Part shown: positions 10,311-63,302 of the stretch, piece by piece
Layout of the letters: every line of letters begins with the position of its first letter
Position numbering within the stretch: position 1 is the stretch's first letter
From: a phage
Reading direction: 5' to 3' (one strand)
Assembly (NCBI GenBank): GCA_020773975.1
Contig: GCA_020773975.1_3638.1
Length of the DNA stretch: 64,000 nt
Notes under the pieces: model-generated
Database searches by the model: none
What the model saw: the letters and a program-made list of their open reading frames with translations, nothing else
What the model was told of the DNA's origin: nothing
Translations under genes and position numbers: made by a program

Positions 10311-10491
10311 CGTTAATTTTAATCAAAGGGAAGTCAGTAATCAAGACATGATTTAAACCAACGGCAGTAACAAGGTATTTCTGCTCTGGATCCCAAGACA
10401 ATTTAGACTTGTACAAACAACCTTGTCTAATTTTAAAATCTTCCACACACCCACCCTTCACAGTTGTGATCACGACATCCTTCAAAATCAT
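10264..10491 (-). CDS. hypothetical protein (possible fragment)
   Basis: Overlaps both neighbours by 47-59 nt in different frames. Confidence 0.25.
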   Translation of the reverse strand: MILKDVVITTVKGGCVEDFKIRQGCLYKSKLSWDPEQKYLVTAVGLNHVLITDFPLIKINDGYSFPRYCWSNTFG

Positions 10492-11068
10492 ATGGGCTGT
10501 ACTGCCAGGTTATTTTTCCGCAGTGCGGACAATTCCAGCGCACTTTCCCGCTTCGTGACCTCTTCCTTCTGTTCTGCTTTTTCAACCAATCAGGCATGAC
10601 CAAACCTGCGCCCTGAACCATTGTTCTGCGGTTAAAGTTATTGATATTGAACGTCCGGCGCTTTGCTGCATCAGCAATGGAAAATGGCAACCAAACTATT
10701 CCTGGTTCGTTTTTGTTGGCGACGCTAAAGATGGTCGCTTTACTGAAGTCATCTGTTGGCAATCCACCGTGTTGAAGCCAGTAAACATCGTTGCCGTTCC
10801 AGCTACCTTTTTTGTAGGCCACATACGCAGTGCAATCTGACTCAATCAGGCTTTCTGTAGGGATGTACTGGCAATCAACGTGCCACACAGCCATTGCATC
10901 CACACTATCAGCGCAAACAGGTTGATCGATATCTCGACCACAATTCCAGGCTTTTTGGGCTTCTTCCAGCGTGTAAACATGAGCGCGATCGATATCATAA
11001 CTGTAACCATTGCCGTTATGGCAATGGAATGAGGCGTTATTACCCACAGTTTCACGCAAGCACATCAT
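10433..11068 (-). CDS. Cys-rich hypothetical protein
   Basis: C-terminal CPHCG...C...C zinc-ribbon-like cluster; start placed at internal Met to avoid overlap. Confidence 0.4.
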   Translation of the reverse strand: MMCLRETVGNNASFHCHNGNGYSYDIDRAHVYTLEEAQKAWNCGRDIDQPVCADSVDAMAVWHVDCQYIPTESLIESDCTAYVAYKKGSWNGNDVYWLQHGGLPTDDFSKATIFSVANKNEPGIVWLPFSIADAAKRRTFNINNFNRRTMVQGAGLVMPDWLKKQNRRKRSRSGKVRWNCPHCGKITWQYSPYDFEGCRDHNCEGWVCGRF

Positions 11069-11082
11069 GTAAAAACGGTTGC

Positions 11083-11532
11083 TCACTGGTTGCCTCCGTT
11101 GCGAAGCTGTTCCGCACAATGCCGCAGGGCATCCGTAGCATCTTTAAGCGTAACCATCTCGTCATCATCCAGTCCTGCTCCCCTCGCATCCATGACAAAC
11201 GCTGCGCAAAGGTCGTTAAACACTTCAGCCCGTATTTCAGCCAGAAAAGCATCGGTGGCTGGGGTTTTGATATCATAAATTTCAGGAAGAATCTCTTCCC
11301 ATGTGACGATATCACCATTCAAATGCCAATCGGCAATCCCACTGGAGTTATCAGCAACATCGTGGACAGCTTTAATCGCTCTGTGCAGGGCTATATTCTC
11401 AGCAACCAATTCTGCACAACGAGTCTCCAGTTCTGAGATTTTCTTTTTATTATGGTATCCCTTTTCTAAAAGAGTTGCGCATTTACTACCTAGGCGTTTG
11501 ATTTCATTGGTGTACACTGATTTCTCAGTCAT
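11083..11532 (-). CDS. hypothetical protein
   Basis: ORF in GC-richer segment. Confidence 0.4.
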   Translation of the reverse strand: MTEKSVYTNEIKRLGSKCATLLEKGYHNKKKISELETRCAELVAENIALHRAIKAVHDVADNSSGIADWHLNGDIVTWEEILPEIYDIKTPATDAFLAEIRAEVFNDLCAAFVMDARGAGLDDDEMVTLKDATDALRHCAEQLRNGGNQ

Positions 11533-11752
11533 GGTTGGCTACCCCTTTCTTCAACAACTTGATGTTAGTTTTAAGTTCTGCAATTTGACACATAGCGTCA
11601 ATATTTGTGTCTTCTAACTTCTTAATTTCATCAAGAAGTGTCAATACAACCTCCGGTGTTACCATACTACGATAATCCGTCACCTCTTGATAAGTACCGC
11701 CATCTCTTGCTATCTCTGCTAACTTACGTAATTCTTGGTAGTCAATTTTCAT
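11525..11752 (-). CDS. hypothetical protein (prophage Ea22-like flavour)
   Basis: Short acidic coiled-coil ORF. Confidence 0.35.
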   Translation of the reverse strand: MKIDYQELRKLAEIARDGGTYQEVTDYRSMVTPEVVLTLLDEIKKLEDTNIDAMCQIAELKTNIKLLKKGVANHD

Positions 11753-15183: not shown

Positions 15184-15501
15184 CATCAGTTCAGAGAGTT
15201 CGTTACGCTCTCCCGCACCATTACGTGCATAGCCACAAGATTTCTCCTGTGGGTCGGACTATCTCATCCTCCTGATATTAAGGAGGCCTCCCGTTTCGAC
15301 CGCACTTGCTGGCCTACTCTACTCGCTTTCACATTACTAGTGTGCTTTCGATAGTCTCTGAACGTTCATCCCATAGGGATGCTTCGCTGCGGATTAGCAT
15401 ATTGAACTTTTGCTACTTTTACGTATAAAAGCCAGCTTAGCCTTCCCGTCAATTAGAGAGGTTTTCGACATGCATTACTGCATGAAGCCACAATGTTATT
15501 T
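15184..15501 (-). ncRNA. group I self-splicing intron (ORF-less, 318 nt) in DNA polymerase gene
   Basis: P/Q/R/S-like elements AAUUGACGGGAAGG, AAUCCGCAGC, GUUCAGAGACUA, AGAUAGUCCGACC; IGS GUGG pairs with exon end CCAU; ends in G. Confidence 0.8.
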
Positions 15502-17913
15502 ATGGTAGTAGATAACCCTCCTGACACCTTGGTCGTACCATCCCCATTTCACCAATTCCCAATGGAACAGGACTCCCATGAGGTCAAACAATGAAGCACC
15601 ACCGTTTTGTTGGTAAGCATTCAGCAGAGAATGTTTAGAACGAGTCCAAATTTTACGCCCGTCCATGCCTGGAATATAGCGTCTCCCATTTGCCTCCCAG
15701 AATTTTTCCAACCACTCCCTACGCATTTTCAACCCGAAGTTACTATCCCAGAATGCATCTATTACAGCCTGTGCTCTATTAAGGGGGATACCCAGCATTG
15801 CGGCTATCTTAGGAGCTTGTGCTCCATACATAATTCCATACGTAACCCCCTTTCCTCCAGAGCGTGTTACCTCCTTTCCTGCTGCTATTGTGTATGCTCT
15901 TGCGTTTCGTTCATGGGCATCCTCTTCCATCATGATACGTAAATACTCACCACCATCAAACTCAAAAGCCCCTGCCGCTGCAATCATACCTTCTAAGTTA
16001 GATCCATCACAACCCATCAGGTAGTAGCCTTCAGGGACTGTCCAAAGACCCCGCATTTCTTTTCCCAACAAAACCTTCGGATCAGGCTTGGGCATGTTTG
16101 CGCAAACAGTATGCTTGCACCTGCCCGTGTTAGTGATTCCAGAAAAACGTGCTGGAAGTTTTCCGTCAATGTCTAAACGAGGGTGATTTAATAACCCTGT
16201 ATCCGTCTTATCCTCATCCATTGGGTCTAAAACAGATCGCCTGTTACGAAGTGATAGCCACTTAACAATCTGTTTTGCCATATGCACATCAATTTTCTCC
16301 AAATTTGGACACAGATGCCCAAAATTATCTTTTAATTGAGGAGATGTCGGTAACTGGCGTGCTTTACGCCGAAATTTCTTAAATATCTCTGAATAACCCC
16401 TTTCAGATGCATGGCGATGGTCAAACTTACGCTCTGAAATGTTGAATTTCTCATCTGAATCATTAAGGTAGTCAAGAATAAGAGATTTATACTCAGACTC
16501 TGCCAACTCTTCTATGTACTTCTTAACTAGTACATCAATTTCAGAATCTTCACGAGTCTTTTTAAATTGATCCTTAGTAACATCTTTTACGCGCCACAGT
16601 GTAGGTTTCCAACCAGCATCTTTGATCAAATATTTTTTAATATCATCCTGATTAGAGATTTTCATTGGAACCATTAAATCTGGCATTTTTCTGTTTCGAA
16701 GGTCTTCTTTAGCCTTCTCTAGAAGATCCGGCGGTAAAGGTTCGAGTGTGTTCTCTTTGGTTCGCTGGGAACGAATGAAATCACCGTATAAAGCCGGATC
16801 TTCAATGCCATTCTGGATGCAATATCTCTCCCCTGCTGCACTTACATCCCCATTGCTCTTAAAAGCTGTTTTTGGTGGAGCTTTAAACTCCAGAGCTTCC
16901 CTGTTAACAGGATAGCCAAGTTTATATTCCAACCAATTCCACCCATGATGAGATATATTACCCGCTGTGTCAAAAGGGTTAGCTGGGAATTTTGGTTGTT
17001 GAGATTTCGTCATCTCTTTTTTTGGAAGAAGTGGTTCTACCTCTTCTTCAATTTCTCGCATCATCTTATCTATGCGATCTCTTAATTTTTCTGCCTCCTC
17101 CCGATTAAAGTATACGCCTTGTATTTCTTGCTCTATCATCAAATAGTCTGTGAGCATTCTCCTACGTAATGCATTTTTCCAATTAATCTGGTGCATCCCG
17201 TGAGGTTTATCAGTGTACATAAACTGCTTGTCATCAGGCCATCGCGTACCATTTGACTCATCAATAAGAGCTTTCCACACAAGTTCGTTAATGATAACGT
17301 CTTCCCACACACGGTTTACATATTCCCACAATGGCTGATTACGCCAATCATCAATCTGCACTTTCTTGTTTGCTACACGATAACCCCATGCCAATAAGCC
17401 GTGTGGCCCAACCCTGTCACGTTTTCCTGTTACAGGGTTCAATACAGAATCTGGGCAGCCATTAGGCAATGGGCGATCTGGGTAAAGAACACGACTCATT
17501 GAAAGAGTGTCGTAAAGATTTACCTGTTTATTACCTATCGTCCCCATACATTTTAGGTCTTTGAACATGTCATATTCAATCCCAGAAAGTTTTTTCCACA
17601 GACGTAAATCATAGCCGAACAGGTTATGTATTGCTATCCCTCTTGGCTCGGTCTGCAACCAAGAGTAAAAATCATCATAAGAAAGGATACGTAAATTAAC
17701 ACCTTCTTTGCTGCGTGCAAAATTAACTGCACTCTGGTATTCCTTGTGAGCAGGATCGAGAAACAACACCCAGTTATTTACAGCATATTCTTTAAAAAGT
17801 GTGCAGTGATATTTAGTTGCCTCTTCTAATAATCCGTCAGCTTCGTTATCTCCGACAAAAAGCCCTTTCATACTCCTCCTATTCAAGATGGGCTTGACTG
17901 TATCGTCGCCCAT
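15502..17913 (-). CDS. family A DNA polymerase, exon 1
   Basis: Motif B RSGGKGVTYGIMYGAQ; ORF runs 2 codons into the intron before a stop. Confidence 0.85.
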
Positions 17914-39299: not shown

Positions 39300-39354
39300 A
39301 ATTTAACCACACAGGGAGGCTAACGCACGTAGTCTCCCATATGTCCCCATTTCA

Positions 39355-39378
39355 GGGACATGGGTATGTCCCTGTTTT
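39355..39378 (+). terminator. rho-independent terminator within a cluster of overlapping GGGACAT/ATGTCCC hairpins (39341-39385)
   Basis: GGGACAT-gggt-ATGTCCC followed by TGTTTTG. Confidence 0.55.
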
Positions 39379-39430
39379 GGGGACACAATACTAACTGATC
39401 AAATTAAACTAACTTATAAGATCTATTAAA

Positions 39431-39564
39431 TATAATACTACGTATTATAATACTATGATCTATTTAATATAATATATTATACTACGTATAATATAATTTA
39501 ATATGATCTAATATAATATAATATAAATTATATAATATAATTTAATATAATACTACGTATTATA
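39431..39564. repeat. very AT-rich segment with three copies of inverted repeat TATAATAC-TAC-GTATTATA
   Basis: Copies at 39431-39449, 39476-39492, 39546-39564. Confidence 0.7.
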
Positions 39565-40040
39565 TATTATAATATATATATTATATAAAATTTATTTAAA
39601 ATACACTAAGTCTTGAAGAATGTCAAGACTTGATTTTAAATATTTTTGTTGATATGATTCGATTGAGTCGAATCGTATGGTTCGATGATTTCGAATCATA
39701 GAGTTCATAGTGTTTTGCCTGAAAGTGTGAGTCGATGAGACTCTTCAGGCAATACGTGAGTGTGTAAGATGCTCACTGCGCTGATAGCTTGTGACCATCT
39801 AACCCTCATGAGCCATTCTGAGATAAACCCACATCAACAAACCCTACAGGTTTGTCTCTGTGTGTTGATCTCAATCATGGATTCGGGTTGTCACAGGTCA
39901 CTATGTGACTCTGTGTGTGGGGGATTTTGAATGTGTACCGGAGCATGGCGCACAGGACTGGTTCATCTGTCTGTCTCAACTGGGGCGCGGCGGGTGTCAA
40001 GGTTTAGTTTTACGTTTGTTTGGGTGTGGAGGAGAGTTTT

Positions 40041-40358
40041 ATGGCCTACGATGAAAATTCTATCCGTGTGCTGTCACCTGAGGATATCAAACAACGATTT
40101 GACTGGGTACGCATCGGGGATTTGGTTCACGAATATAACTTACCTGTGGATTGGGTCAGACGTGGTTTTGAAGCGTGCTGGAGGTTAGACATCGATCCTG
40201 ATTATTTTATCAACAAGTACATCCTCAAGCAGGATGTTGATCCTGTACCTGATTTTGAGGCTGTTTTTAAGGAGATTGTTATGGAGTCTCGATTCAAGGA
40301 TCAGGTATGCACTCGGCAGTCTCAAAAACGCACCTACGAATCAGATTTGCAAATGTAG
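40041..40358 (+). CDS. early-region hypothetical protein
   Basis: RBS GGAGGAGAG before ATG 40041. Confidence 0.45.
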   Translation: MAYDENSIRVLSPEDIKQRFDWVRIGDLVHEYNLPVDWVRRGFEACWRLDIDPDYFINKYILKQDVDPVPDFEAVFKEIVMESRFKDQVCTRQSQKRTYESDLQM

Positions 40359-40437
40359 CCTACGGATAGGTAAAAACATCAACGAAAATCGATTCTCCGC
40401 TGGATCTACAGAGTAAATTTTCAATTTTCGGAGAAAA

Positions 40438-40812
40438 ATGATGAAACGTACCATGACAGATAAAGAGCGCGAAATTGCCCTCCAGTTAGCAAGAGAAAAA
40501 AGAGAGCAACAAAAGCGAGAATGGACTGCGCTGGCAGAAGCGGGAAAAATACGCCAACATTTCGCTGACGCTAATCACTGGACAAGGCTTCGTAGCAAGT
40601 ATAGGATTTCGTCTCCGTACAAATTAGCTCCCGCAGAAAGTGAGCATGGAATGAAAATTCTTAGACGAACGATCAGACTGACCGGAGGATTCGAGTGGTT
40701 CAATGAGTCTTTCGGTATGGACATCAAGCAGTTTGTCAGAATGAACCATACGTGGCCTGCATACGCCATTCAGGGGATCATCCTTGAAGAGTGGGATGAT
40801 TATCAGAATTGA
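40438..40812 (+). CDS. early-region hypothetical protein
   Basis: RBS GGAGAAAA before ATG. Confidence 0.45.
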   Translation: MMKRTMTDKEREIALQLAREKREQQKREWTALAEAGKIRQHFADANHWTRLRSKYRISSPYKLAPAESEHGMKILRRTIRLTGGFEWFNESFGMDIKQFVRMNHTWPAYAIQGIILEEWDDYQN

Positions 40813-40905
40813 TTTTTGTTGTATTTCTGGTAGCCAACTGGTATGTTTATTACAGGGAGTGATAAACACCCCTGTGTTACTTGTTTTATACAGGAGAGTT
40901 GATAT

Positions 40906-41520
40906 ATGTCTTGGCCTTTTTTGATTTATCTTATTGATGTTCTTAGTACGGATGGGAAGTATGATGGCTGGGGATTCTTGTTGTTTCTGTGTGTTATTGT
41001 ATACATGCTGATGCGTATTCTTCCAAAGATCCTCGAAAAACCTAAGCTGGATATCTATCCAGGACAAAACCTTGTTTTAGCACAAGACTGGTCACGATTT
41101 AAAGCCGGAGATGTTCTTGTTGTGAAGGATACTGCGGGTGGTGATGTTCTTCTTCGCCACGGGGAGGAATCACTTGGTTATTGGGTGGGTAAGAGCATTT
41201 TACGAAAAGTGTGCAAACTTGATGAAAAACAAGAATATATCCCACAGCAAGATGCGATGGAAACACCGCGAAAGTTAACTGTTATTGCTATGGTTGTCTG
41301 TGTAATAGGTATTCTATATGCCAACTTCATGCCGCAGAAAGAGACTTCTTACAAGATGCTTGCTGCGTATGTAGGTCAAAACATTGTAGAATCTCCAAGG
41401 ACTCAACAACTTGCAGACAGCACAATCAAGTATCTGGATGCCCAAATCAAGAAGTACACCCAAGAATTGGGTGACGAGGGGAGTAAGGAGTCTAAGCCTG
41501 GTGAGAAGGTGAAAGAATGA
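40906..41520 (+). CDS. membrane protein
   Basis: RBS; two hydrophobic segments. Confidence 0.45.
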   Translation: MSWPFLIYLIDVLSTDGKYDGWGFLLFLCVIVYMLMRILPKILEKPKLDIYPGQNLVLAQDWSRFKAGDVLVVKDTAGGDVLLRHGEESLGYWVGKSILRKVCKLDEKQEYIPQQDAMETPRKLTVIAMVVCVIGILYANFMPQKETSYKMLAAYVGQNIVESPRTQQLADSTIKYLDAQIKKYTQELGDEGSKESKPGEKVKE

Positions 41521-41882
41521 TGGGAAAGCCATTTGAAATAAAACGAATAGCGTTGGACTTTGATGATACTTTCACGCTAGATACTGAGAGATGGTCACAA
41601 TTTGTTGCTATATTCGCAGCAAAAGATTCAGGTTGGTGTGTTAAATTTGTTACTTATCGATTCGACTCAGATGATAACTCTGATATCCAGTTTTGGGCTG
41701 AAAAACTAGGTATCGAAATAATTTATTGCAATGGTATCCAGAAAGCACAAGTTTGTGCAGAACTTGGTTGGATCCCAGATGTGTGGATAGACGATTTTCC
41801 TGTTCTCATTCCTGTGAAACAACAACTACAGGGTATGCTTTTAGGAATAGAAAATAACGAAGAAAAACACAATGTTAAGTAG
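41517..41882 (+). CDS. small HAD-like hydrolase, possibly 5'(3')-deoxyribonucleotidase-like
   Basis: IALDFDDTF (DxDxT motif I) and WIDDFP. Confidence 0.35.
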   Translation: MMGKPFEIKRIALDFDDTFTLDTERWSQFVAIFAAKDSGWCVKFVTYRFDSDDNSDIQFWAEKLGIEIIYCNGIQKAQVCAELGWIPDVWIDDFPVLIPVKQQLQGMLLGIENNEEKHNVK

Positions 41883-42119
41883 TTTAAGGGGGAGTGTTGA
41901 GAAGCGTTGCGTATTACAAATTCAAATGTTGGGAGAAACTCTATGATTTGAGCTACCTTATTTTTGGGAATCTCCCTGTCACTGAAGACATTAAACACAA
42001 AATGTATCTTGCATACATGAAATACCGTCTCCACGAAAGAAAGAGTGGTTGATGAGAATGTTATGATGCCCTGTAGATACTCTCTACAGGGCTTGAATGC
42101 TTAATCACAGGACTTACCA

Positions 42120-42944
42120 ATGACAAGTATTTTACACACGACAGGTATTTTACCACACTATCAGAAGGACTATTCTTTCCCTGATTTCTCTGGGGATATG
42201 TTGCAAATATACGACAAAGTGCAAGGCGAAGTGTCGGAGCTACAGTTTAGTTCAGACCCTGATGATGAGCAAGAGTTTGATAAACAGATTTGTCGTGTAG
42301 AAAACGAGCTTATAGAGCTACAATCATTAGCCAAATCAACAGATATCGAAGACTTAAGGCGATACGTCGAGAATCTTGAAAATTTAGTGTTCGGGCTTTC
42401 GCAAGCTATTATAAACATTGGTGAAATTGCTAAAATTGCCTCTGACAAGTTGCCAGACAACGCAGAAGATATTGAAGAAGCGTTGCAGAATATCTGCTAT
42501 GAAGGAAGTTCTGCTCTCGGTTGTGAATGTAATCTAGGAAATGCTCTTGAAGAACGTGGGTGGAGCCTAGCCCAAAAAACTTTTGTTTATCTTGTTATTG
42601 GTGGTGAGTTCCCACGACTTTTACAACTTAATGCCCTTTTTGGAAACAGTCAGAGCGATAATATTGCATTAGGTATTGATGGTTGGTTCTGCTTAAGAGG
42701 TAAAGAATTAACATTTTGTCGTGGCGATGATGTGTTAATTCTCAATGCTTCTAAACCTGGTGTTGGAATAACAGTAAGACTTAATGGTAAGTCCACTAAT
42801 TTCCACACCACAGAATTGACAGATATTTTTATGGACATATTCGATCCTACAGAAGACGAAATTCTTATGTATGAAATGACCAGTGGAAAAAGGTATGATA
42901 TTTTGTTGTGGAGAAATATTTTCGGTAAGAAGAAAAGTTTATAG
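42120..42944 (+). CDS. hypothetical protein
   Basis: 274-aa ORF. Confidence 0.45.
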   Translation: MTSILHTTGILPHYQKDYSFPDFSGDMLQIYDKVQGEVSELQFSSDPDDEQEFDKQICRVENELIELQSLAKSTDIEDLRRYVENLENLVFGLSQAIINIGEIAKIASDKLPDNAEDIEEALQNICYEGSSALGCECNLGNALEERGWSLAQKTFVYLVIGGEFPRLLQLNALFGNSQSDNIALGIDGWFCLRGKELTFCRGDDVLILNASKPGVGITVRLNGKSTNFHTTELTDIFMDIFDPTEDEILMYEMTSGKRYDILLWRNIFGKKKSL

Positions 42945-43204
42945 TATGATATTTTATCGCTGATATTTGTTTTCCCTGTGATATTTTTGTCACAGGGAAA
43001 GTTTCAACAACAGATATTTTCTTGATACTTTAAAACTCTACCAGAATTTAAAATTCTGTAAATTTAGAAAACTATTACTTATAAGCGTTTCGACACAATT
43101 TTGTTATGAAAGCCTTGTTTTTATATAAAAACCTGTTTTAGCATGAGTGGTAGGATCACACTCCATACTACCTTTATTCCTACAGATGAGCACCTCCATG
43201 TCCG

Positions 43205-43420
43205 AAAACTCGGTTCTCGATCGAAAATTCATTTTCCAGATCGTATTTGCTCCTTACGGAGAAAATTTTTTAGGGCTACAAATTTCAGTTCTCGATCAGT
43301 TTTTCGATTTCAAAATCGTATTTGTTTTTTCTTGCGAAAAATTTCGCACGCTCAGTTCTCGATCGAGTTTTCAAAATCGAAATCGTATTTGCTCTATAGC
43401 GCGAAAAAATTTTTATGGGT
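43205..43420. repeat. three tandem direct repeats of 67-75 bp
   Basis: Cores GTTCTCGATC(GA) at 43213, 43288, 43355 and ATCGTATTTG at 43240, 43315, 43382. Confidence 0.7.
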
Positions 43421-43796
43421 ATCATAATTCTATCACACACTTAAACGCAAAGCAACATAAAAATTTTTGTTGAATGATAATCATTCTTATTTGCATAATG
43501 ACAGGCAGGAGCGGTGTCTTATCCTCCCCCGTTGACCATCGTCGCCGTAGTTTGAAGTTTATAGCCGTTCTCGGCTTATATCTTTGTTAGATATAGATTA
43601 GCATAATTGATAAAGAAAGCAAGTTTTAGGCATAATCTTTACGTTTCTTTACAAATTTATTTTTGACGAGTTACCGGCGATCGACCTTCCAACCAGCGCC
43701 CTGATATGTTAGCCCCGCCTTTACGCCGTGGGGATGGCGTTTCCTCTTCTGTATGTGAAACATTATAAGCCCGACCCCCGGGCTTGTCAAACATTT

Positions 43797-44063
43797 TTAT
43801 TGTTTATTTTCTTGCCAGGTTAGGACACCTAGCCAGAAATGGCAATCACCTTTCGCCCATTGTGGTATATTGCTTTCTTTCCCACCTTCCCGCGCCCAGG
43901 AATAACCGCCCGTGTAACTTTGCAATTGATAACTATCCTCGACCTTATAATCTGACAGGCTGAGAACTGTTTCTACCTTTAAGCCCGTTGCGCTCGCTAC
44001 CTGGTGGATAGTTCCCCCTTGCCAGCCTAACGCGTGCATAAGGTGCAATGTGGTAGTGGTCAT
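43797..44063 (-). CDS. hypothetical protein, antisense to the early block
   Basis: RBS AGAGGAA upstream; GC-richer than surroundings by eye; hairpin AAGCCCGACCCCCGGGCTT just downstream. Confidence 0.4.
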   Translation of the reverse strand: MTTTTLHLMHALGWQGGTIHQVASATGLKVETVLSLSDYKVEDSYQLQSYTGGYSWAREGGKESNIPQWAKGDCHFWLGVLTWQENKQ

Positions 44064-44142
44064 TTTTTCTATTCCTCTGTTAGTTGGCTAGTTGTTAAAA
44101 TTATATCTATAACCAGCCAGGTTAGCAAGGCAAATAAAAGAG

Positions 44143-44193
44143 AAAAATTTTTTAAAAATAGTATTGACAGCGGGGGTAGTATAGATCTACTAT
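44143..44193 (+). promoter_or_regulatory. sigma70-like promoter with A/T UP element (cassette copy 1)
   Basis: AAAAATTTTTTAAAAATAGTATTGACA then 18 nt then TACTAT. Confidence 0.5.
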
Positions 44194-44248
44194 GTGCACA
44201 TCAAGGCGATACACCGCCACCAACCAACCTAAAAAGGGGTGAATTAAT

Positions 44249-44596
44249 ATGAAAACCATCGTTAACGCTGAGAATGTATCTTTTGATAAGTTGAGCGACG
44301 CACAAAAAGAAAAAGCCATTGATCTTATTCGTGAGCGTGAAAGAGAAAGTAATAATGATTTCTTTGCTGATAGTGTCATTGAAGACTATAAGAATGACAT
44401 TTTGCCAGAGTACGGGATCGATGACGCGGTTATCTATTGGTCAGGATTCTGGTCGCAAGGCGACGGCGCATCAATCAGCACTGACCGCGTGGATATTGAA
44501 AAATTTTTAAGAAAAGTTAAATCTTTAACAAAATTCAGAGGGATCCGCAAACTATTTGATATTGATGAAGATGGAAAAGTTTACGCTATCGCTTAA
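44249..44596 (+). CDS. early-region hypothetical protein
   Basis: Leader AAAAGGGGTGAATTAATATG shared with the gene at 50099. Confidence 0.5.
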   Translation: MKTIVNAENVSFDKLSDAQKEKAIDLIRERERESNNDFFADSVIEDYKNDILPEYGIDDAVIYWSGFWSQGDGASISTDRVDIEKFLRKVKSLTKFRGIRKLFDIDEDGKVYAIA

Positions 44597-44636
44597 AAGT
44601 GCTTGCATTCAGTTTTAAAATAGGAGGTAAATAAAA

Positions 44637-44993
44637 ATGGCAATCAAGGCAATCATGTTAGAACTTACAGACTTCCGTAATACTGTAAAAAATTTAACCA
44701 AAAAACAGGTTGATAATATTATCAACGGATACCGTAGCAAGATTAAAGATCTTCCGCTTAAACGCGATCAACATGCGGCTAATATGATGCTTGACGCTAT
44801 GATCAAAAAGATGATTCAGTGCGATCTTACTCTGGCTTATGAATACGCTGGCGATCTCTTTGTAACGTATAATAAGCCAGTGCCAGGCATGTGCACCACG
44901 GAAGAATTGCACGCCCTGAATCTAAAACAAGATGCATGGGATAATATGCGCCGCGTTATGGTGTGGGCAGAAAGCGGTAAAATTTATCAATAA
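44637..44993 (+). CDS. early-region hypothetical protein
   Basis: RBS AGGAGGTAAAT. Confidence 0.5.
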   Translation: MAIKAIMLELTDFRNTVKNLTKKQVDNIINGYRSKIKDLPLKRDQHAANMMLDAMIKKMIQCDLTLAYEYAGDLFVTYNKPVPGMCTTEELHALNLKQDAWDNMRRVMVWAESGKIYQ

Positions 44994-45000
44994 AGATAGT

Positions 45001-45038
45001 TGTCTTTTAGTTATGCCGTGGTAGAATACACGGCATAG
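45001..45038 (+). promoter_or_regulatory. promoter with -10 inside a palindrome
   Basis: TTGTCT - 16 nt - TAGAAT; ATGCCGTG (45014-45021) and CACGGCAT (45030-45037) flank the -10. Confidence 0.5.
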
Positions 45039-45069
45039 ATAAGAGAAACTACTTATCAGAGTTTAAAAG

Positions 45070-45288
45070 ATGAAAAATATTACGGGTAAAACCGAGCTAT
45101 TAAAGGCGCTTTCTGTCGGTGAGTCAGCTTTATGGGTATGTGAAAAAGATCGCCTACCGTCGCGTGAGATGGCCTTGTTTAAGGCTTTATCTTTGAAGCT
45201 GAAAATTAAATTATCCCAAAAATTAGCGGTTGTTGCCGCACCTGGGGAAACTGCTTTCAGTATCGTAATGGTTAAAAGGTTGGAGTAG
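45070..45288 (+). CDS. early-region hypothetical protein
   Basis: ORF; weak RBS. Confidence 0.35.
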   Translation: MKNITGKTELLKALSVGESALWVCEKDRLPSREMALFKALSLKLKIKLSQKLAVVAAPGETAFSIVMVKRLE

Positions 45289-45306
45289 AAAAAATTAAAA
45301 ATTATA

Positions 45307-45335
45307 TTGACAAGCAAAACAGCAAAAATTAAACT
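45307..45335 (+). promoter_or_regulatory. sigma70-like promoter
   Basis: TTGACA - 17 nt - TAAACT. Confidence 0.45.
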
Positions 45336-45373
45336 TACACACAGTTAAATAAACAATATTAACGAGGTAAATC

Positions 45374-45745
45374 ATGAAACAGTTAACCGCTTCCCAAAAA
45401 GCAATGATCCGTGAGTATGTTTTAAACTCTCTTTCTTTCGATATTGAATCGGGTAGCGAGCAAGAGCAGATCAAAGAATTAAAAAACCGATTTGAATCTG
45501 AATACTGGTACGATAGCAACAAGAAACGCTATCAAAATGATAAAGTACAAGGCCTCAAAAATTGGTTGCAAGGCTTGCCGAGTGGTGTTAATATCGATTT
45601 CACTTATTACGATATTGAGCAACGCCTTAAAGATCTTGGAATCATTACCGAGACGACCAGAGAAAGCACTATTGAAAAATATATATCTGAGTGGTGGGAT
45701 CTGGTAGCGCCGTTTTATGCTGGGCTAATCGTCAACTTAAAATAA
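45374..45745 (+). CDS. early-region hypothetical protein
   Basis: RBS GAGGTAAAT. Confidence 0.5.
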   Translation: MKQLTASQKAMIREYVLNSLSFDIESGSEQEQIKELKNRFESEYWYDSNKKRYQNDKVQGLKNWLQGLPSGVNIDFTYYDIEQRLKDLGIITETTRESTIEKYISEWWDLVAPFYAGLIVNLK

Positions 45746-45823
45746 TTATTGCAAACTATCTAAAACTGGTTTAAATTAAAGGGAGTGAGTTTAATCACTC
45801 CCAACATGAAAGAGGTTAATCAA

Positions 45824-46135
45824 ATGAATACTTATTTTTCTACTCGTTCACTTGCACGCATTGCAGCGAAAGAAACAGGCGGTAAAGTTTTAGATAATGG
45901 CAAAGATGCGCCGATCGGTAAACGTTGGCAAGTTATCCCTGGCTATGTTATTGAAGCCGTCCAGGATACAGCAAAACAACGCGCTGAGATGGAAAATAAA
46001 CCAGTAGTCACCTTGTCCATTGGTAAGCGTAGCAATGTAGCGAATCAAGCCCGTAAGGCGCTTTATTACGCCATCAATTACGCAAGAAATAATAAAACTG
46101 TTCCGCTTTATCATAAGCGTTCATTTAAGAAATAA
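45824..46135 (+). CDS. early-region hypothetical protein
   Basis: RBS AAAGAGGTTAAT before ATG 45824. Confidence 0.45.
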   Translation: MNTYFSTRSLARIAAKETGGKVLDNGKDAPIGKRWQVIPGYVIEAVQDTAKQRAEMENKPVVTLSIGKRSNVANQARKALYYAINYARNNKTVPLYHKRSFKK

Positions 46136-46204
46136 TTTTTAATTAGATAAAAAGCGCCCTAAGAAATGGGCGCTAAACAAAAACACTTAAAGAGGTAAAT
46201 TATT

Positions 46205-46555
46205 ATGGCTAGCATTGTAGAAATTTTCAAAAAAGCTGTTGAAAATAAAAACGCTGAGTTGTCTTTAACGTCTTTGAATTTTACTGATGCTTACGGTAAT
46301 ACTTATTTTGTTTATGAGCTTGGTTTTACTTGTCCTGAGTTAAAAACATGGGAAACGTTGCATAAATCTCGCGATCTGCAATATGGATATGGTGATCACG
46401 TTTTAACTGTTGCAATGAAAGACCTTTCAACTATTACCGGGGTAAAATCTGAGGCCGCATATATTACCCGTTGGGCGCATGACAACGGCTTAAAAATTAG
46501 TGTCAACAAGCGCACCAATTGCCGGAAAAAAGATTTAAAACAGTTTATCGCTTGA
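46205..46555 (+). CDS. early-region hypothetical protein
   Basis: RBS AAGAGGTAAAT. Confidence 0.5.
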
Positions 46556-46580
46556 TCCTGTTAATCATCTTGGTGGTTGT

Positions 46581-46931
46581 ATGATCCAGTTTTATATAAT
46601 CATCGCGGCGCTTGCAATTTACTTAGGATTGCACCAAAAAGTATTCAGGGTAATTCTTTGGTTTTATTACGAGTACAGGATCAGAATGGGTTATCACTAT
46701 ATCGAATACTCTTTCCACGGCGAGAGATACCACACAAGGAGATCCGGCCCATTAAATGATCTTGAGGGAAACGGTTTAATCTGTGAGGTCAAAAAGCGGG
46801 GCGGGAAAATTCTTTACCACAAAGAGGGCACTTTTGATTATATTGATGAGGTGATTAATTTTAGGCAACAAGCCGTAAAAGATCACGCCAGCAAAATAAT
46901 CAACGGCAGCTATAAACGCAAAGCGGGGTAA
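46581..46931 (+). CDS. hypothetical protein with N-terminal TM segment
   Basis: ORF. Confidence 0.4.
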   Translation: MIQFYIIIAALAIYLGLHQKVFRVILWFYYEYRIRMGYHYIEYSFHGERYHTRRSGPLNDLEGNGLICEVKKRGGKILYHKEGTFDYIDEVINFRQQAVKDHASKIINGSYKRKAG

Positions 46932-47122
46932 TATGCGGAATTTTGAAAAAATTGTTAAAGCTAATCGCCTGGAATACGGGGAAACAGACGAAAAACGGGA
47001 ACGGGTAGGCAAACGCCATAAACCTAAAAAGGTTCCTAAATTGTGGTGTCCTGATAAATACGATCACAAATTAAAACAGCGTATCGCTGAGAAACAGCGA
47101 TTAAACGCAAGATAACAGACAA

Positions 47123-47146
47123 GGCCGGAACTATCCGGCCTTTTTA
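47123..47146 (+). terminator. rho-independent terminator
   Basis: GGCCGGA-acta-TCCGGCC followed by TTTTT. Confidence 0.65.
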
Positions 47147-47510
47147 ATGCCTGGTGGCGTTCAGAACGATTAAAACTATTAAAGATGGTCCGATGTACCA
47201 CAAAATAAAATAGCTCGTTAGAGAGTGTTTTAGAGGCCTTAAAATCGATCCTAAAAATATCTATAAAAATGCTTGCAATGCTTTCCCGCTATCGTTATAG
47301 TGTTCCCAACAAGCAAGCAAACGAGGTTAACGGCAATGATTGAGATTCTTAAAAATCCTATTTTGTGTGGTATGGTTGTTTCTGTGTCACTTCCGATCGT
47401 GCTGTTAGTCGTTAGCGAAATAGATGATTTTATCTTTAATAAAAGACTTGCCAACAAGTCAAAAACAAATTAATATAGTATCAGCATACTAACTAGCGAG
47501 GTGATTTAAT

Positions 47511-47729
47511 ATGTTTGGTTTTATTGTTCTATCTTGTTCTCTTCCTGTCACTGCTGCAAAGGTAGAATGTAACTACACTGTAAAAGAGACTTTTAATGAT
47601 GAAAAGTCTTGCAATGTATACGAAAATAATTATAAACTAGGAGACGGGGAGCAGTTCGGGATCTGTGATGAATTAAAGGACGGTATGAAGAAAGGCGATA
47701 AGCGCCCGATCCTGGTCCTGAAAAAATAA
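47511..47729 (+). CDS. small secreted or membrane-anchored Cys-containing protein
   Basis: Signal-peptide-like N-terminus; RBS GCGAGGTGA. Confidence 0.45.
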   Translation: MFGFIVLSCSLPVTAAKVECNYTVKETFNDEKSCNVYENNYKLGDGEQFGICDELKDGMKKGDKRPILVLKK

Positions 47730-47770
47730 TTTTTCTAATCATGTTGATCAATTCTTAAGAGGTGAATAAA

Positions 47771-48058
47771 ATGTTTGAAGTTTTCGCGGGTATGTGTTTT
47801 TATACAGCTTTGGCAGTTCGCCAATGTGATGATTATATCGTTGAATCATACGATGATCAGTTGACTTGCGAAATAGTCGCTAATGACTACGGCAAAAAAG
47901 ATCGCTGGATTAATCCGGCTTGCATACCATCCCCAGAGGTAGAAGCCATGCCGGAAGGGGAAGAGGTATCAAATCCAGTTGTAGCAGTATCCTCCTTTTT
48001 CGTTGACAACCTGGACGCCCAAGAATTGATCAACATGTATGTAAAAAATCAAAAATAA
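47771..48058 (+). CDS. early-region hypothetical protein
   Basis: RBS AAGAGGTGAATAAA before ATG 47771. Confidence 0.45.
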   Translation: MFEVFAGMCFYTALAVRQCDDYIVESYDDQLTCEIVANDYGKKDRWINPACIPSPEVEAMPEGEEVSNPVVAVSSFFVDNLDAQELINMYVKNQK

Positions 48059-48061
48059 CGC

Positions 48062-48097
48062 TTGACGTTGATTTGTGCCACCTTATAATAGGTGGCA
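48062..48097 (+). promoter_or_regulatory. promoter with consensus -10 inside a palindrome
   Basis: TTGACG - 16 nt - TATAAT; TGCCACC (48076-48082) and GGTGGCA (48091-48097) flank the -10. Confidence 0.55.
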
Positions 48098-48148
48098 TAG
48101 GTAAGCGAAAGCGGATCTAAGTCTTAAACAAGGTAAGAGAGGTAAATC

Positions 48149-48469
48149 ATGGAACAAGCTAATAAATTTTTCTTCCTGGCTGGGATCGTGGATAATGTGA
48201 AATGTGATTTCAAGCGTGAAAATGATAAGACGTTACTCACTTTCTGCGATATGCTTGATCATGAGAATGCCGACAAGTTACGAATCGAGATCCGCACGAT
48301 AACCAATATCGACAATTCAAGCCGTTTAATTTATAAATCTCATTCGATAGCTTACAGCTTGGAAACATCAACAAGCTGCATACAACAAGGTGAGAGCTTG
48401 CCCATTCTAAATAGTGCCGATGTATTTGGCGCGGTTGTTGCAATTGTAAATGATGTTTTTTCTCGTTGA
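48149..48469 (+). CDS. early-region hypothetical protein
   Basis: RBS AGAGAGGTAAAT. Confidence 0.5.
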   Translation: MEQANKFFFLAGIVDNVKCDFKRENDKTLLTFCDMLDHENADKLRIEIRTITNIDNSSRLIYKSHSIAYSLETSTSCIQQGESLPILNSADVFGAVVAIVNDVFSR

Positions 48470-48586
48470 TTGGTGTTAATATTATGTTAGAGAATATCGT
48501 GTTTTGGTGTGGTGTCGTTATCGCTGTTATGGTTGGCATCCTGGCGACGATGGCGAACATTGTGATCTCAAACAACCTGGCAGGGT

Positions 48587-48635
48587 AAAAATTTTTTAAA
48601 AATAGTATTGACATACTGGCGGCATATGGTATCAT
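48587..48635 (+). promoter_or_regulatory. sigma70-like promoter with A/T UP element (cassette copy 2)
   Basis: Same 27 nt AAAAATTTTTTAAAAATAGTATTGACA as at 44143; TG-extended -10 TATCAT after 16 nt. Confidence 0.5.
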
Positions 48636-48686
48636 TTACCACATGAAGGGGCGAGATTGACTTGCCTCACTAACGAAAGGTAAATA

Positions 48687-48956
48687 ATGATGAACATTTC
48701 TAAAACTACTTTTAACTTTGCTAAAAAGCGTGGAATTTAGCTTGAGCTAGTCGAAGCAGATGATCGCTTGCTCCTGGCTTTTTATGAAGCTAAAAACGAA
48801 TGTGAGTGGATGTTCTCTTATAATGTTAATCATGATTGCCTAACCTGGCGCGGAAATATCTATCTTTCAAACGAAGTGAAAGAGGAATTACCCGCCACGA
48901 TCACGACTGAGAAAAAACTACGTGAGGTTATTGACTTCATCTCTAAAAGTATCTAA
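48687..48956 (+). CDS. reading frame interrupted by an in-frame TAG at 48738-48740
   Basis: RBS AAAGGTAAAT then ATGATG; 17 codons, TAG, then 72 in-frame codons with no ATG until 48810. Confidence 0.3.
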
Positions 48957-49002
48957 GATTACAGGGAAAGGGGCAAAAGCCCCCTACCGCAGAAGGTATA
49001 AA

Positions 49003-49227
49003 ATGGATAAATTAACAAAGATTGAACATGAAGTTATGGATCTTGCAAGGGCTAATAGGCCATTTGACAAGATTTTCTCTAAGGAGAATAAAGAGATCTT
49101 GAAAGATCTAACGCAAGGTCAAAAAGACGGCTTGCGCCGCTTATATCGTGAGGCGTATGACTATTTTCGCTGGTGGGAAATAGAAGAGGCTAACGCGAAA
49201 ATAGAAGGCCTAGAAAATTTAGTATAA
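49003..49227 (+). CDS. early-region hypothetical protein
   Basis: RBS GAAGGTATAAA before ATG 49003. Confidence 0.45.
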   Translation: MDKLTKIEHEVMDLARANRPFDKIFSKENKEILKDLTQGQKDGLRRLYREAYDYFRWWEIEEANAKIEGLENLV

Positions 49228-49233
49228 AAGTAG

Positions 49234-49270
49234 TTGACTTTTACTTATGCCGTGATAGAATGCACGGCAT
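49234..49270 (+). promoter_or_regulatory. promoter with -10 inside a palindrome (second copy of the 45001 type)
   Basis: TTGACT - 16 nt - TAGAAT; ATGCCGTG (49247-49254) and CACGGCAT (49263-49270). Confidence 0.55.
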
Positions 49271-49322
49271 AGATAAGAGAGACGGCACAAGCCATTGATT
49301 AAACTTAAAGAGGTAAATTATC

Positions 49323-56476: not shown

Positions 56477-57206
56477 AATTACAAACTACCTTTTTTCTTT
56501 GGTAATGGCTTGAAACATGGGGGTAATTCACCACCTAACGACCAACGCAGCAGATTGTTATATCCAGGAAGTCTTTTTCTACCACCTTCTCCTTTATACA
56601 CCCACGGAACATGCGTAGTTTCAAACTTTCTCTCACCTGTCTTTGATTCGTACAATAGCCACATACCTAATGTGAGGGTTTCTGTGTCTGTCCAGTTTAT
56701 CTGCTACTCAGATGTGCCTATTAATTCGAAATTGTCTTTTTCTTTCTTTTTCTTAAACCATCCGAACATTATTCAATCCTCACTGATACATATCGCCATG
56801 TTCTTTTGTAGTATTCTACGGTTTCCACCAATTTGTCAAGAGGTACTCTTGTTTTCAATATCCACCAGCTACCAAGATACTCTGTAGAACATGCACTCAT
56901 CCTGCCACATATGGTATACGTTGCCACTACATCCTCCACGTTAGTTTCTGAGCGATCTCTAACAAAGCATCTATCTTGTGTATATACTCTTTCCTTTTCT
57001 CACTGCCAGGAGGGAATTGGTCTCTCGTTTGCATCAAGGTTTTTATCTCTTCAGACAGATGATTAAGGATTTCAACGCGCTCACGTTTTCGACCTAGTTG
57101 TTCAATTTCTTTATCACTACAATTCATAACACACCCTACAGTGTTGTCAAACTATGAGAGTATGATAATATATGGTGCAACAACTTACAATAGCAGGAGA
57201 CAATTT

Positions 57207-62057: not shown

Positions 62058-63302
62058 TTAGAATAACATATCTCTGCTGATTGCTTTACGAATAGCATCA
62101 ATACGGGCTACTCGCACAGCTTCACCAATCTCTTTACCCTTCTTACCCTTTTCCAGAAGGGGTTTTGTTATAGCTTTAGAATCAACTTTTGTCATAGCGT
62201 CGTAGGCTTCCAACAAAAAATGACCTTGAAGATAAGGTTTATGTCTAAAATCACCACCTCTTCCTTTAGCATCACAATAACACGCATCTGCAAGTGTGTA
62301 AACCTTCATTTTCTGGTCAGCTTGTCCAGCAGCTTCAAATATTTTCATGATGCTTTTTGGTTTCAAACCGTTGTTACCATCTCTGGGAGAGATGGTGTGC
62401 ACTTTTGTGTGATTTTCTGCAACATATTTTGCCGTGTCACGATAGATATTATAAATCTTCAACCTTTCACACAAGGATTGGATAACATCTACCCCAGCTT
62501 TCTCATGACCATGAAGATTACCATTGTCCTTGTAAGTTATAGCTTTGCCAAAATCATGGCACAGCACAGCAAACTTGGTCAGTGGATCAGCTTCTAATTC
62601 ATCAGCAACCCGTAACGCTAGAATTGTATGGGTGTAAGCATCCCCCTCTGGGTGATGTTCTTTAGGTTGTTGCACACGACGTAGGGCTTCCAGTTCAGGA
62701 AGTTCGCCAATACGTCCCATATTGACAGCAAAAGACCTGAAATAACCACTCTTTAAGGCTTTCAACATTTCCTTCCATTTACGATAGGCGCTTATTTCTG
62801 CCAAAGAGTGTCGGTTGTCATAAGCCAGTTTAAAAGTTTCTGGATGGATATGCCATTCTTCCCCAAGCTGGGCTTTAAATCTAAACAGGCGTAGAATACG
62901 TAATGGATCTTCAATAAACGCCTCCGATGTATGACGTAATGTTTTAAGTCCTAAGTCAACCTGACCACCAAAAGGATCAATAATCTCACCACTGTCAACA
63001 TCCATCGCCATGGAGTTGATGGTAAGATCTCTACGTGCCAAATCCTCTTCCAGAGTTACATCTGGACTAAAGCATACCTCAAATCCTTTATGGCCTTCGC
63101 CTGTTTTTCTTTCTGTGCGTGCAAGAGCGTACTCTTCTTTTGTTTCTGGGTGAAGATAAACTGGAAAAGATGCGCCAACTTGTGTGAACCCTCTTTTCAG
63201 CATCTCTTCATGCGTAGCACCAACAACCACATAATCACGGTCTGATATTTCACGACCTAACAATTTATCTCTTACTGCGCCACCTACCAAGTATACCTTC
63301 AT
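62058..63302 (-). CDS. cca: tRNA nucleotidyltransferase (class II CCA-adding enzyme) with HD domain
   Basis: MKVYLVGGAVRDKLLGR...DRD head domain; FPVYLHPETKEEYALARTERK; HD motif HHPEGDAYTHT...CHDFGK; near-colinear with E. coli Cca from memory. Confidence 0.85.
   Translation of the reverse strand: MKVYLVGGAVRDKLLGREISDRDYVVVGATHEEMLKRGFTQVGASFPVYLHPETKEEYALARTERKTGEGHKGFEVCFSPDVTLEEDLARRDLTINSMAMDVDSGEIIDPFGGQVDLGLKTLRHTSEAFIEDPLRILRLFRFKAQLGEEWHIHPETFKLAYDNRHSLAEISAYRKWKEMLKALKSGYFRSFAVNMGRIGELPELEALRRVQQPKEHHPEGDAYTHTILALRVADELEADPLTKFAVLCHDFGKAITYKDNGNLHGHEKAGVDVIQSLCERLKIYNIYRDTAKYVAENHTKVHTISPRDGNNGLKPKSIMKIFEAAGQADQKMKVYTLADACYCDAKGRGGDFRHKPYLQGHFLLEAYDAMTKVDSKAITKPLLEKGKKGKEIGEAVRVARIDAIRKAISRDMLF

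Follow-up and report, generated by a model that had tools for sequence, protein, structure and literature searches.

A small conserved early gene of an Avunavirus-like E. coli phage (Vequintavirinae) has most probably been knocked out by a recent amber mutation, GAG to TAG at codon 18, that is private to one strain. The gene belongs to the phrog_6147 family and lies in the window, by which we mean the whole stretch of 64,000 nucleotides of phage DNA that was analysed. If this reading holds, transcription and translation initiation of the gene would be unaltered and the gene would be well expressed, and in an ordinary host release factor 1 (RF1) would stop translation after 17 residues. The protein would therefore be lost apart from trace near-cognate read-through, and the downstream frame would still be perfect simply because the mutation is too young for other changes to have followed. 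We infer that the protein is not actually made and that doing without it is neutral or adaptive. Nonsense mutations confined to one strain are routine in dispensable accessory genes.

The window carries tail-fibre, replication, early and nucleotide-metabolism genes. The region shares 94-94.5% identity with Escherichia phage Av-05 (Avunavirus), with vB_EcoM_TH18 (hereafter TH18) and with three marmot-derived scaffolds, and colinearity with blocks of these genomes extends over the whole window. Comparison with TH18 proteins places an orthologue of the CCA-adding enzyme, which the first-pass annotation had already recognised in this DNA, at 62061-63302. The interrupted gene and its upstream signals are laid out as follows:

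48587-48613, + strand: A/T-rich UP-like element and -35 cassette AAAAATTTTTTAAAAATAGTATTGACA, 27 nt, the second of two exact copies
48608-48635, + strand: sigma-70-type promoter, TTGACA, 16 nt, TATCAT with an upstream TG, 11 of 12 consensus matches
48676-48681, + strand: Shine-Dalgarno AAAGGT, read directly, invariant in relatives
48687-48737, + strand: first 17 codons (MMNISKTTFNFAKKRGI) of the phrog_6147 gene, encoding the N-terminus and the sole part left translatable before the stop
48738-48740, + strand: amber TAG, from the alignment GAG (Glu) in 13 of 13 close relatives, a G>T transversion at 48738
48741-48956, + strand: the remaining 71 sense codons and the TAA (48954-48956), frame intact

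The first-pass annotation had described ATGATG at 48687, a TAG at 48738-48740 after 17 codons and continuation in the same frame to 48956, and these coordinates are exact. It had also reported the second copy of a promoter cassette and a canonical ribosome-binding site, and both are borne out. The cassette occurs exactly twice in the window, at 44143-44169 and 48587-48613 (100% identity), and AAAGGT precedes the double start ATG ATG (48687-48692, + strand) with a spacing of 5 nt to the ATG at 48687 and 8 nt to the one at 48690. The promoter is kept in Av-05, TH18 and a third annotated relative, 18-1-2, where the -10 element reads TATTAT; judged by its match to the consensus, it is a real promoter.

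An 81-nt cassette is also repeated in the window, at 44969-45049 and 49203-49283, with 79% identity between copies. The copy at 49203-49283 contains a promoter-like TTGACT, 16 nt, TAGAAT, overlapped by the inverted repeat ATGCCGTG...CACGGCAT. This cassette resembles a promoter-plus-operator or hairpin unit that recurs in the early region. Directly 3' of the interrupted gene lies a GC hairpin, GGGGC-AAAA-GCCCC (48970-48983), which is kept in relatives and is not a canonical intrinsic terminator because no T-run follows it.

The nature of the stop was established by comparison with 13 close relatives. Three of these are Av-05, TH18 and 18-1-2; the other ten are metagenome or Logan contigs obtained from ENA and Logan assemblies via a neighbouring 106-aa protein. 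A single uninterrupted gene of 88 codons is annotated at the equivalent position in Av-05, TH18 and 18-1-2, and all ten ENA/Logan relatives have an intact gene of 88-89 aa with GAG at the position of the stop codon. At this codon only the first base differs in the DNA alignment, GAG in the relatives versus TAG in the window. Since 13 of 13 relatives carry GAG, we conclude that the TAG arose by one G>T substitution that only this strain has. It is also more than a chance feature of the sequence, because the frame it breaks is that of a conserved gene, which all relatives examined have intact. The comparison with related phages that the first-pass annotation had proposed as a check thus finds one intact gene with a sense codon throughout. 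An exact 48-nt pattern search for the TAG allele gave no match in IMG/VR, JGI metagenomes or GTDB genomes; in IMG/VR, only Av-05 itself is represented.

When Glu is restored at the TAG, the translation matches the phrog_6147 HMM with E=2.6e-41, residues 2-89 covering profile positions 1-89 of 91. The family, which spans Vequintavirinae, T1-like Drexlerviridae and others, is annotated as a small phage protein of unknown function. Full-length homologues occur in 432 phage records; many of these are T1-like E. coli phages, and others infect Klebsiella, Salmonella and Campylobacter. A total of 79 protein clusters (88-106 aa) likewise contain such homologues, all uninterrupted. The restored translation is 94-97% identical to its Avunavirus orthologues and about 60% identical to the T1-like ones. 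Whereas every retrieved member of the family is uninterrupted, the window copy is broken at codon 18 and departs from the family norm of one uninterrupted ORF of ~88-106 codons.

A confident AlphaFold2 model of the restored protein, built from a 44-sequence alignment (pLDDT 92.8, pTM 0.83), predicts a compact RWD-like alpha/beta fold in which helix 1 (residues 6-14) comes first, then four strands and a short helix, and finally a helix at the C-terminus. The protein probably acts as an accessory factor that binds other proteins or as a host-takeover factor. The stop coincides with the first residues of the modelled strand 1 (residues 17-24). The 17 residues before it lie within the conserved domain, A12 being invariant and G16 present in at least 90% of sequences across the family.

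This position of the stop bears on one of the options raised earlier, in which the 17 codons form a short upstream ORF and translation restarts at TTG 48768 or ATG 48810 to give a functional N-truncated protein. Bacterial ribosomes are known to reinitiate past short ORFs. Here, the first in-frame start codon 3' of the TAG is the TTG at 48768, 27 nt past the stop, and the first in-frame ATG is the one at 48810 (codon 42), 69 nt on. Neither start has a usable Shine-Dalgarno; the sequence at 48810 is weak, as had been noted, with GAGTGG alone set directly against the 5' side of the ATG. The resulting 62- or 48-aa products would, according to the model, be missing helix 1 and strands 1-2 of what is a single compact domain, and would not contain the conserved A12 and G16. 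None of the relatives is organised as an upstream ORF with a restart gene, and no gene corresponding to the 62-aa restart product is on record. The 17 codons are instead the conserved N-terminus of the same protein, comprising the helix and the start of strand 1. We consider reinitiation highly improbable.

The age of the stop can be judged from 14 aligned alleles of the gene (the window and the 13 close relatives). Five sites are private to the window: the TAG itself, three synonymous sites and one Leu that is also encoded by a second natural allele group. Among these 14 alleles, the window shows no private amino-acid change besides the stop and no indel past it. The nonsense change is thus recent relative to the 4-6% divergence that separates the window from its nearest relatives, since no other private amino-acid change has accumulated. 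As for a pseudogene, the gene is disrupted where its orthologues are intact, and no sign of relaxed selection or further decay accompanies the disruption. Such missing decay has two possible meanings: either the mutation is too young for decay to show, or the frame continues to be translated.

An error in the consensus was also considered, by which the true phage would carry GAG and the TAG would stem from sequencing, from assembly or from a minority variant that became the consensus. Within the public assembly collection, several window proteins occur in run SRR16760863 alone. Its Logan contig SRR16760863_73 agrees with window positions 43511-48842 at 100% identity and has the same TAG, and over retrieved stretches of ~15.4 kb the contigs SRR16760863_73 and SRR16760863_62 are 100% identical to the window, with both of the in-frame TAGs that it contains (the second is described below). 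An assembler-specific error is ruled out because a separate assembly of SRR16760863 has both TAGs. Agreement between the window and the Logan contigs is not library-independent, because both probably derive from the same read set, and this shared origin leaves some room for an error common to both. The same could be said of the break in the Logan assembly 100 nt downstream of the TAG (48842 to 48891), which could mean heterogeneity in the sample. Against this, two different assemblers returned the identical base, consensus-level substitution errors are rare, and the second, independent TAG is reproduced likewise. In addition, contig SRR16760863_73 extends from 40026 to 48842 with no break at the TAG, and this speaks against a GAG allele of similar abundance. 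An error thus appears very unlikely, and a genuine recent knock-out remains our preferred reading.

The Logan break itself falls inside the gene, SRR16760863_73 ending at 48842 and SRR16760863_62 starting at 48891. The 48-nt gap between them (48843-48890) holds two window-private synonymous sites, at 48845 and 48854, and may reflect micro-heterogeneity in the sample.

To find internal stops elsewhere, we aligned every annotated protein of TH18 to the window. Two of the ~105 TH18 orthologues in the window are interrupted in this way; both are small accessory genes, both stops are TAG, and both are located in the first quarter of their gene. The second case is the following:

56479-56769, - strand: phrog_8932 gene (orthologue of TH18 peg150), 96 codons, with a TAG at codon 22, from the TH18 comparison
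56704-56706, - strand: second amber, TGG (Trp) in Av-05 and TH18 changed to TAG, a G>A transition, from the alignment

The second TAG is present in Logan contig SRR16760863_62, and the residue at its site is Trp in six of the six relatives compared, which represent five Vequintavirinae genera. An amber at such a shared Trp agrees better with loss of function than with read-through being tolerated. In ~340 comparisons of genes between metagenome relatives there was no internal stop, N-terminal ones included, so that the occurrence of two N-terminal TAGs in one window is slightly unusual. The comparison of Av-05 with TH18 yielded internal stops that are C-terminal only.

Given the codon usage of the window, TAG accounts for 34-37% of possible nonsense substitutions, and the chance that two of two are TAG is p ~0.12-0.13. 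We therefore rejected the idea that TAG is over-represented among the nonsense changes; the value is not significant, though not negligible. A third apparent internal stop, the TAA at 15498 in a DNA-polymerase fragment, was likewise set aside as a nonsense change: it appears premature against the TH18 annotation because it sits inside a group I intron. This catalytic intron (window 15236-15511, - strand; Rfam RF00028, 81 bits, E=4.6e-19) lies in the region of a split DNA polymerase gene.

The two ambers raise the question of whether UAG is decoded during infection, either in a supE/supF-type host, or where RF1 is weak or absent, or by a phage tRNA mutated to CUA, in which case both interrupted genes would still give full-length protein. 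Several observations are compatible with such suppression. The two internal stops found in 64 kb are both TAG, both private and both recent, and the frames downstream of them are undamaged, as continued translation would also preserve; early TAGs of this sort are what growth in an amber-suppressing setting would produce. The relatives carry 14-16 tRNAs, the window encodes the CCA-adding enzyme orthologue, and this phage's own tRNA cluster would lie outside the window and could include a tRNA-Tyr whose GUA anticodon is one step from CUA.

Other results weigh against suppression. ARAGORN predicts no tRNA in the window, and Rfam detects none there at the gathering threshold. The tRNA cluster is conserved among the relatives as a single set of 14-16 tRNAs in the other genome block. 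It also encloses a gene for a conserved 128-aa protein, of which two rare variants come from samples other than SRR16760863. A CUA anticodon is absent from these near-identical clusters in all 14 relatives surveyed (Av-05, TH18 and 12 metagenome, NCBI or Logan contigs). TAG is moreover still a normal terminator, ending 10 of 95 window genes, as many as in TH18, and nine of the ten TAG stops of TH18 are still TAG here. From these terminators to the next in-frame stop the distance is 1-27 codons, with the full 27 codons in one gene. That both internal stops are TAG would arise by chance with p ~0.12, and the second amber replaces a shared Trp, whereas the common suppressors would insert Gln or Tyr there. 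The first-pass annotation had stated that two separate genes or an unrelated stop context in relatives, together with a genome free of suppressor tRNAs, would speak against read-through; what the relatives have at the stop is a sense codon within one intact gene, and their tRNA sets include no suppressor. We regard suppression as unlikely, though not negligible. Were it true, it would capture a natural Vequintavirinae strain at the very start of a drift toward amber read-through, the first step to reassigning a stop codon among E. coli phages that have been studied well as a group.

Known systems help to place these observations. Phages that read TAG as Gln by means of their own suppressor tRNAs (crAss-like, Lak) share with this phage an in-frame TAG, and the large tRNA cluster of the relatives and the CCA-adding enzyme in the window invite the comparison. 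TAG-reassigned phages, however, have many genes with in-frame TAGs, typically late or structural ones, and avoid TAG as a terminator. Here, only two in-frame TAGs occur among ~95-105 genes, in small genes and in one strain, TAG continues to end genes (10 of 95), the relatives have a sense codon at both sites, and a CUA tRNA is found in none of the 14. A route like that of T4 psu1, a serine tRNA suppressor that arose by anticodon mutation, would start from the tRNAs that the relatives encode, which include tRNA-Tyr(GUA), Gln(UUG), Ser(UGA) and Lys(UUU). The Tyr tRNA is one step from CUA and the Gln, Ser and Lys tRNAs are two; unlike in psu1, no mutant suppressor tRNA is present in any of the 14 relatives.

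The closest likeness is to the classical amber mutants (T4 am, lambda Sam7), which are conditional on a suppressor host. As in these mutants, a one-base change in the window has created an early UAG while promoter, ribosome-binding site and downstream frame stay intact. At both sites a single nucleotide separates the sense codon of the relatives from TAG (GAG>TAG and TGG>TAG), and GAG or TGG to TAG changes belong to the classical amber class. Unlike T4 am and lambda Sam7, the phage shows no sign of mutagenesis or of a suppressor-host origin, and no conditional phenotype is implied because the affected genes are small accessory ones and not essential.

A different possibility is that the stop is a regulatory device, with read-through, bypass or frameshift having evolved as programmed recoding. 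In its favour, C directly follows both TAGs, and UAG followed by C is a comparatively weak termination context in E. coli. A programmed signal should be shared, yet TAG is absent from all 13 relatives, which all have GAG. Nor is there a stimulatory RNA structure next to either TAG, as the RNA downstream folds no better than shuffled sequences (z = -0.44 for the phrog_6147 gene and +1.38 for the phrog_8932 gene). Two observations in effect exclude programmed read-through: relatives do not share the stop, and the protein aligns colinearly with its homologues. Because these homologues are uninterrupted, neither a bypass nor a frameshift is needed; a T4 gene-60-like event was rejected on that ground. 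We give programmed recoding almost no credence. Even when pooled, consensus error, reinitiation and programmed recoding make an improbable account of the locus.

The three options offered by the first-pass annotation were amber read-through, a decaying pseudogene and an upstream ORF coupled to reinitiation. Read-through by a phage-encoded suppressor tRNA is unsupported, given the tRNA content of the window and of the 14 relatives and the continued use of TAG as a terminator, and reinitiation is equally unsupported. What survives is the pseudogene in its mildest form: the allele is a private nonsense one in a conserved gene, as that option would have it, and decay has not yet set in, the gene being otherwise intact.

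A recent knock-out has practical consequences for annotation. Instead of being entered as two ORFs or as a read-through gene, the locus should carry the label of a disrupted phrog_6147 copy, and the phrog_8932 locus should be labelled as disrupted in the same manner. The two ambers suggest that the strain tolerates, and may even benefit from, the loss of dispensable early genes. They form a natural knock-out pair, in which neither small early protein was needed for the phage to be present in the sequenced sample, and this provides a small piece of functional information on two families that have no known role.

Several minor observations concern the genomes of the group. In the relatives, a protein of 445-452 aa with a match to Gad2 (PF26128) adjoins the tRNA cluster (10403-11740 in one contig), and several relatives have optional extra genes among the tRNAs, such as an Endonuclease_7 gene in one contig. 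A junction at ~39334-40026 of the window, with AT-rich repeats and GGGACAT-type palindromes, connects the replication-side block to the early-gene block; it is arranged otherwise in both GenBank relatives, and the same adjacency is seen in a 135.8-kb ENA scaffold. The right end of TH18 (133766-133882) is an inverted copy of window positions 39804-39920, just upstream of the early genes, and an inverted repeat therefore flanks the two genome blocks (~54-kb block). Published assemblies show the two blocks in differing orientation, and most metagenome and Logan contigs end at this repeat. Finally, about 11 kb of the Av-05 record (KM190144, 102.9-114.1 kb) bears T4 gene names, among them rI, DenV, internal head protein, thymidine kinase and valyl-tRNA synthetase modifier, and its annotation table does not list the ribonucleotide reductase (RNR) or ligase genes that TH18 has. 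This GenBank record looks chimeric or misassembled.
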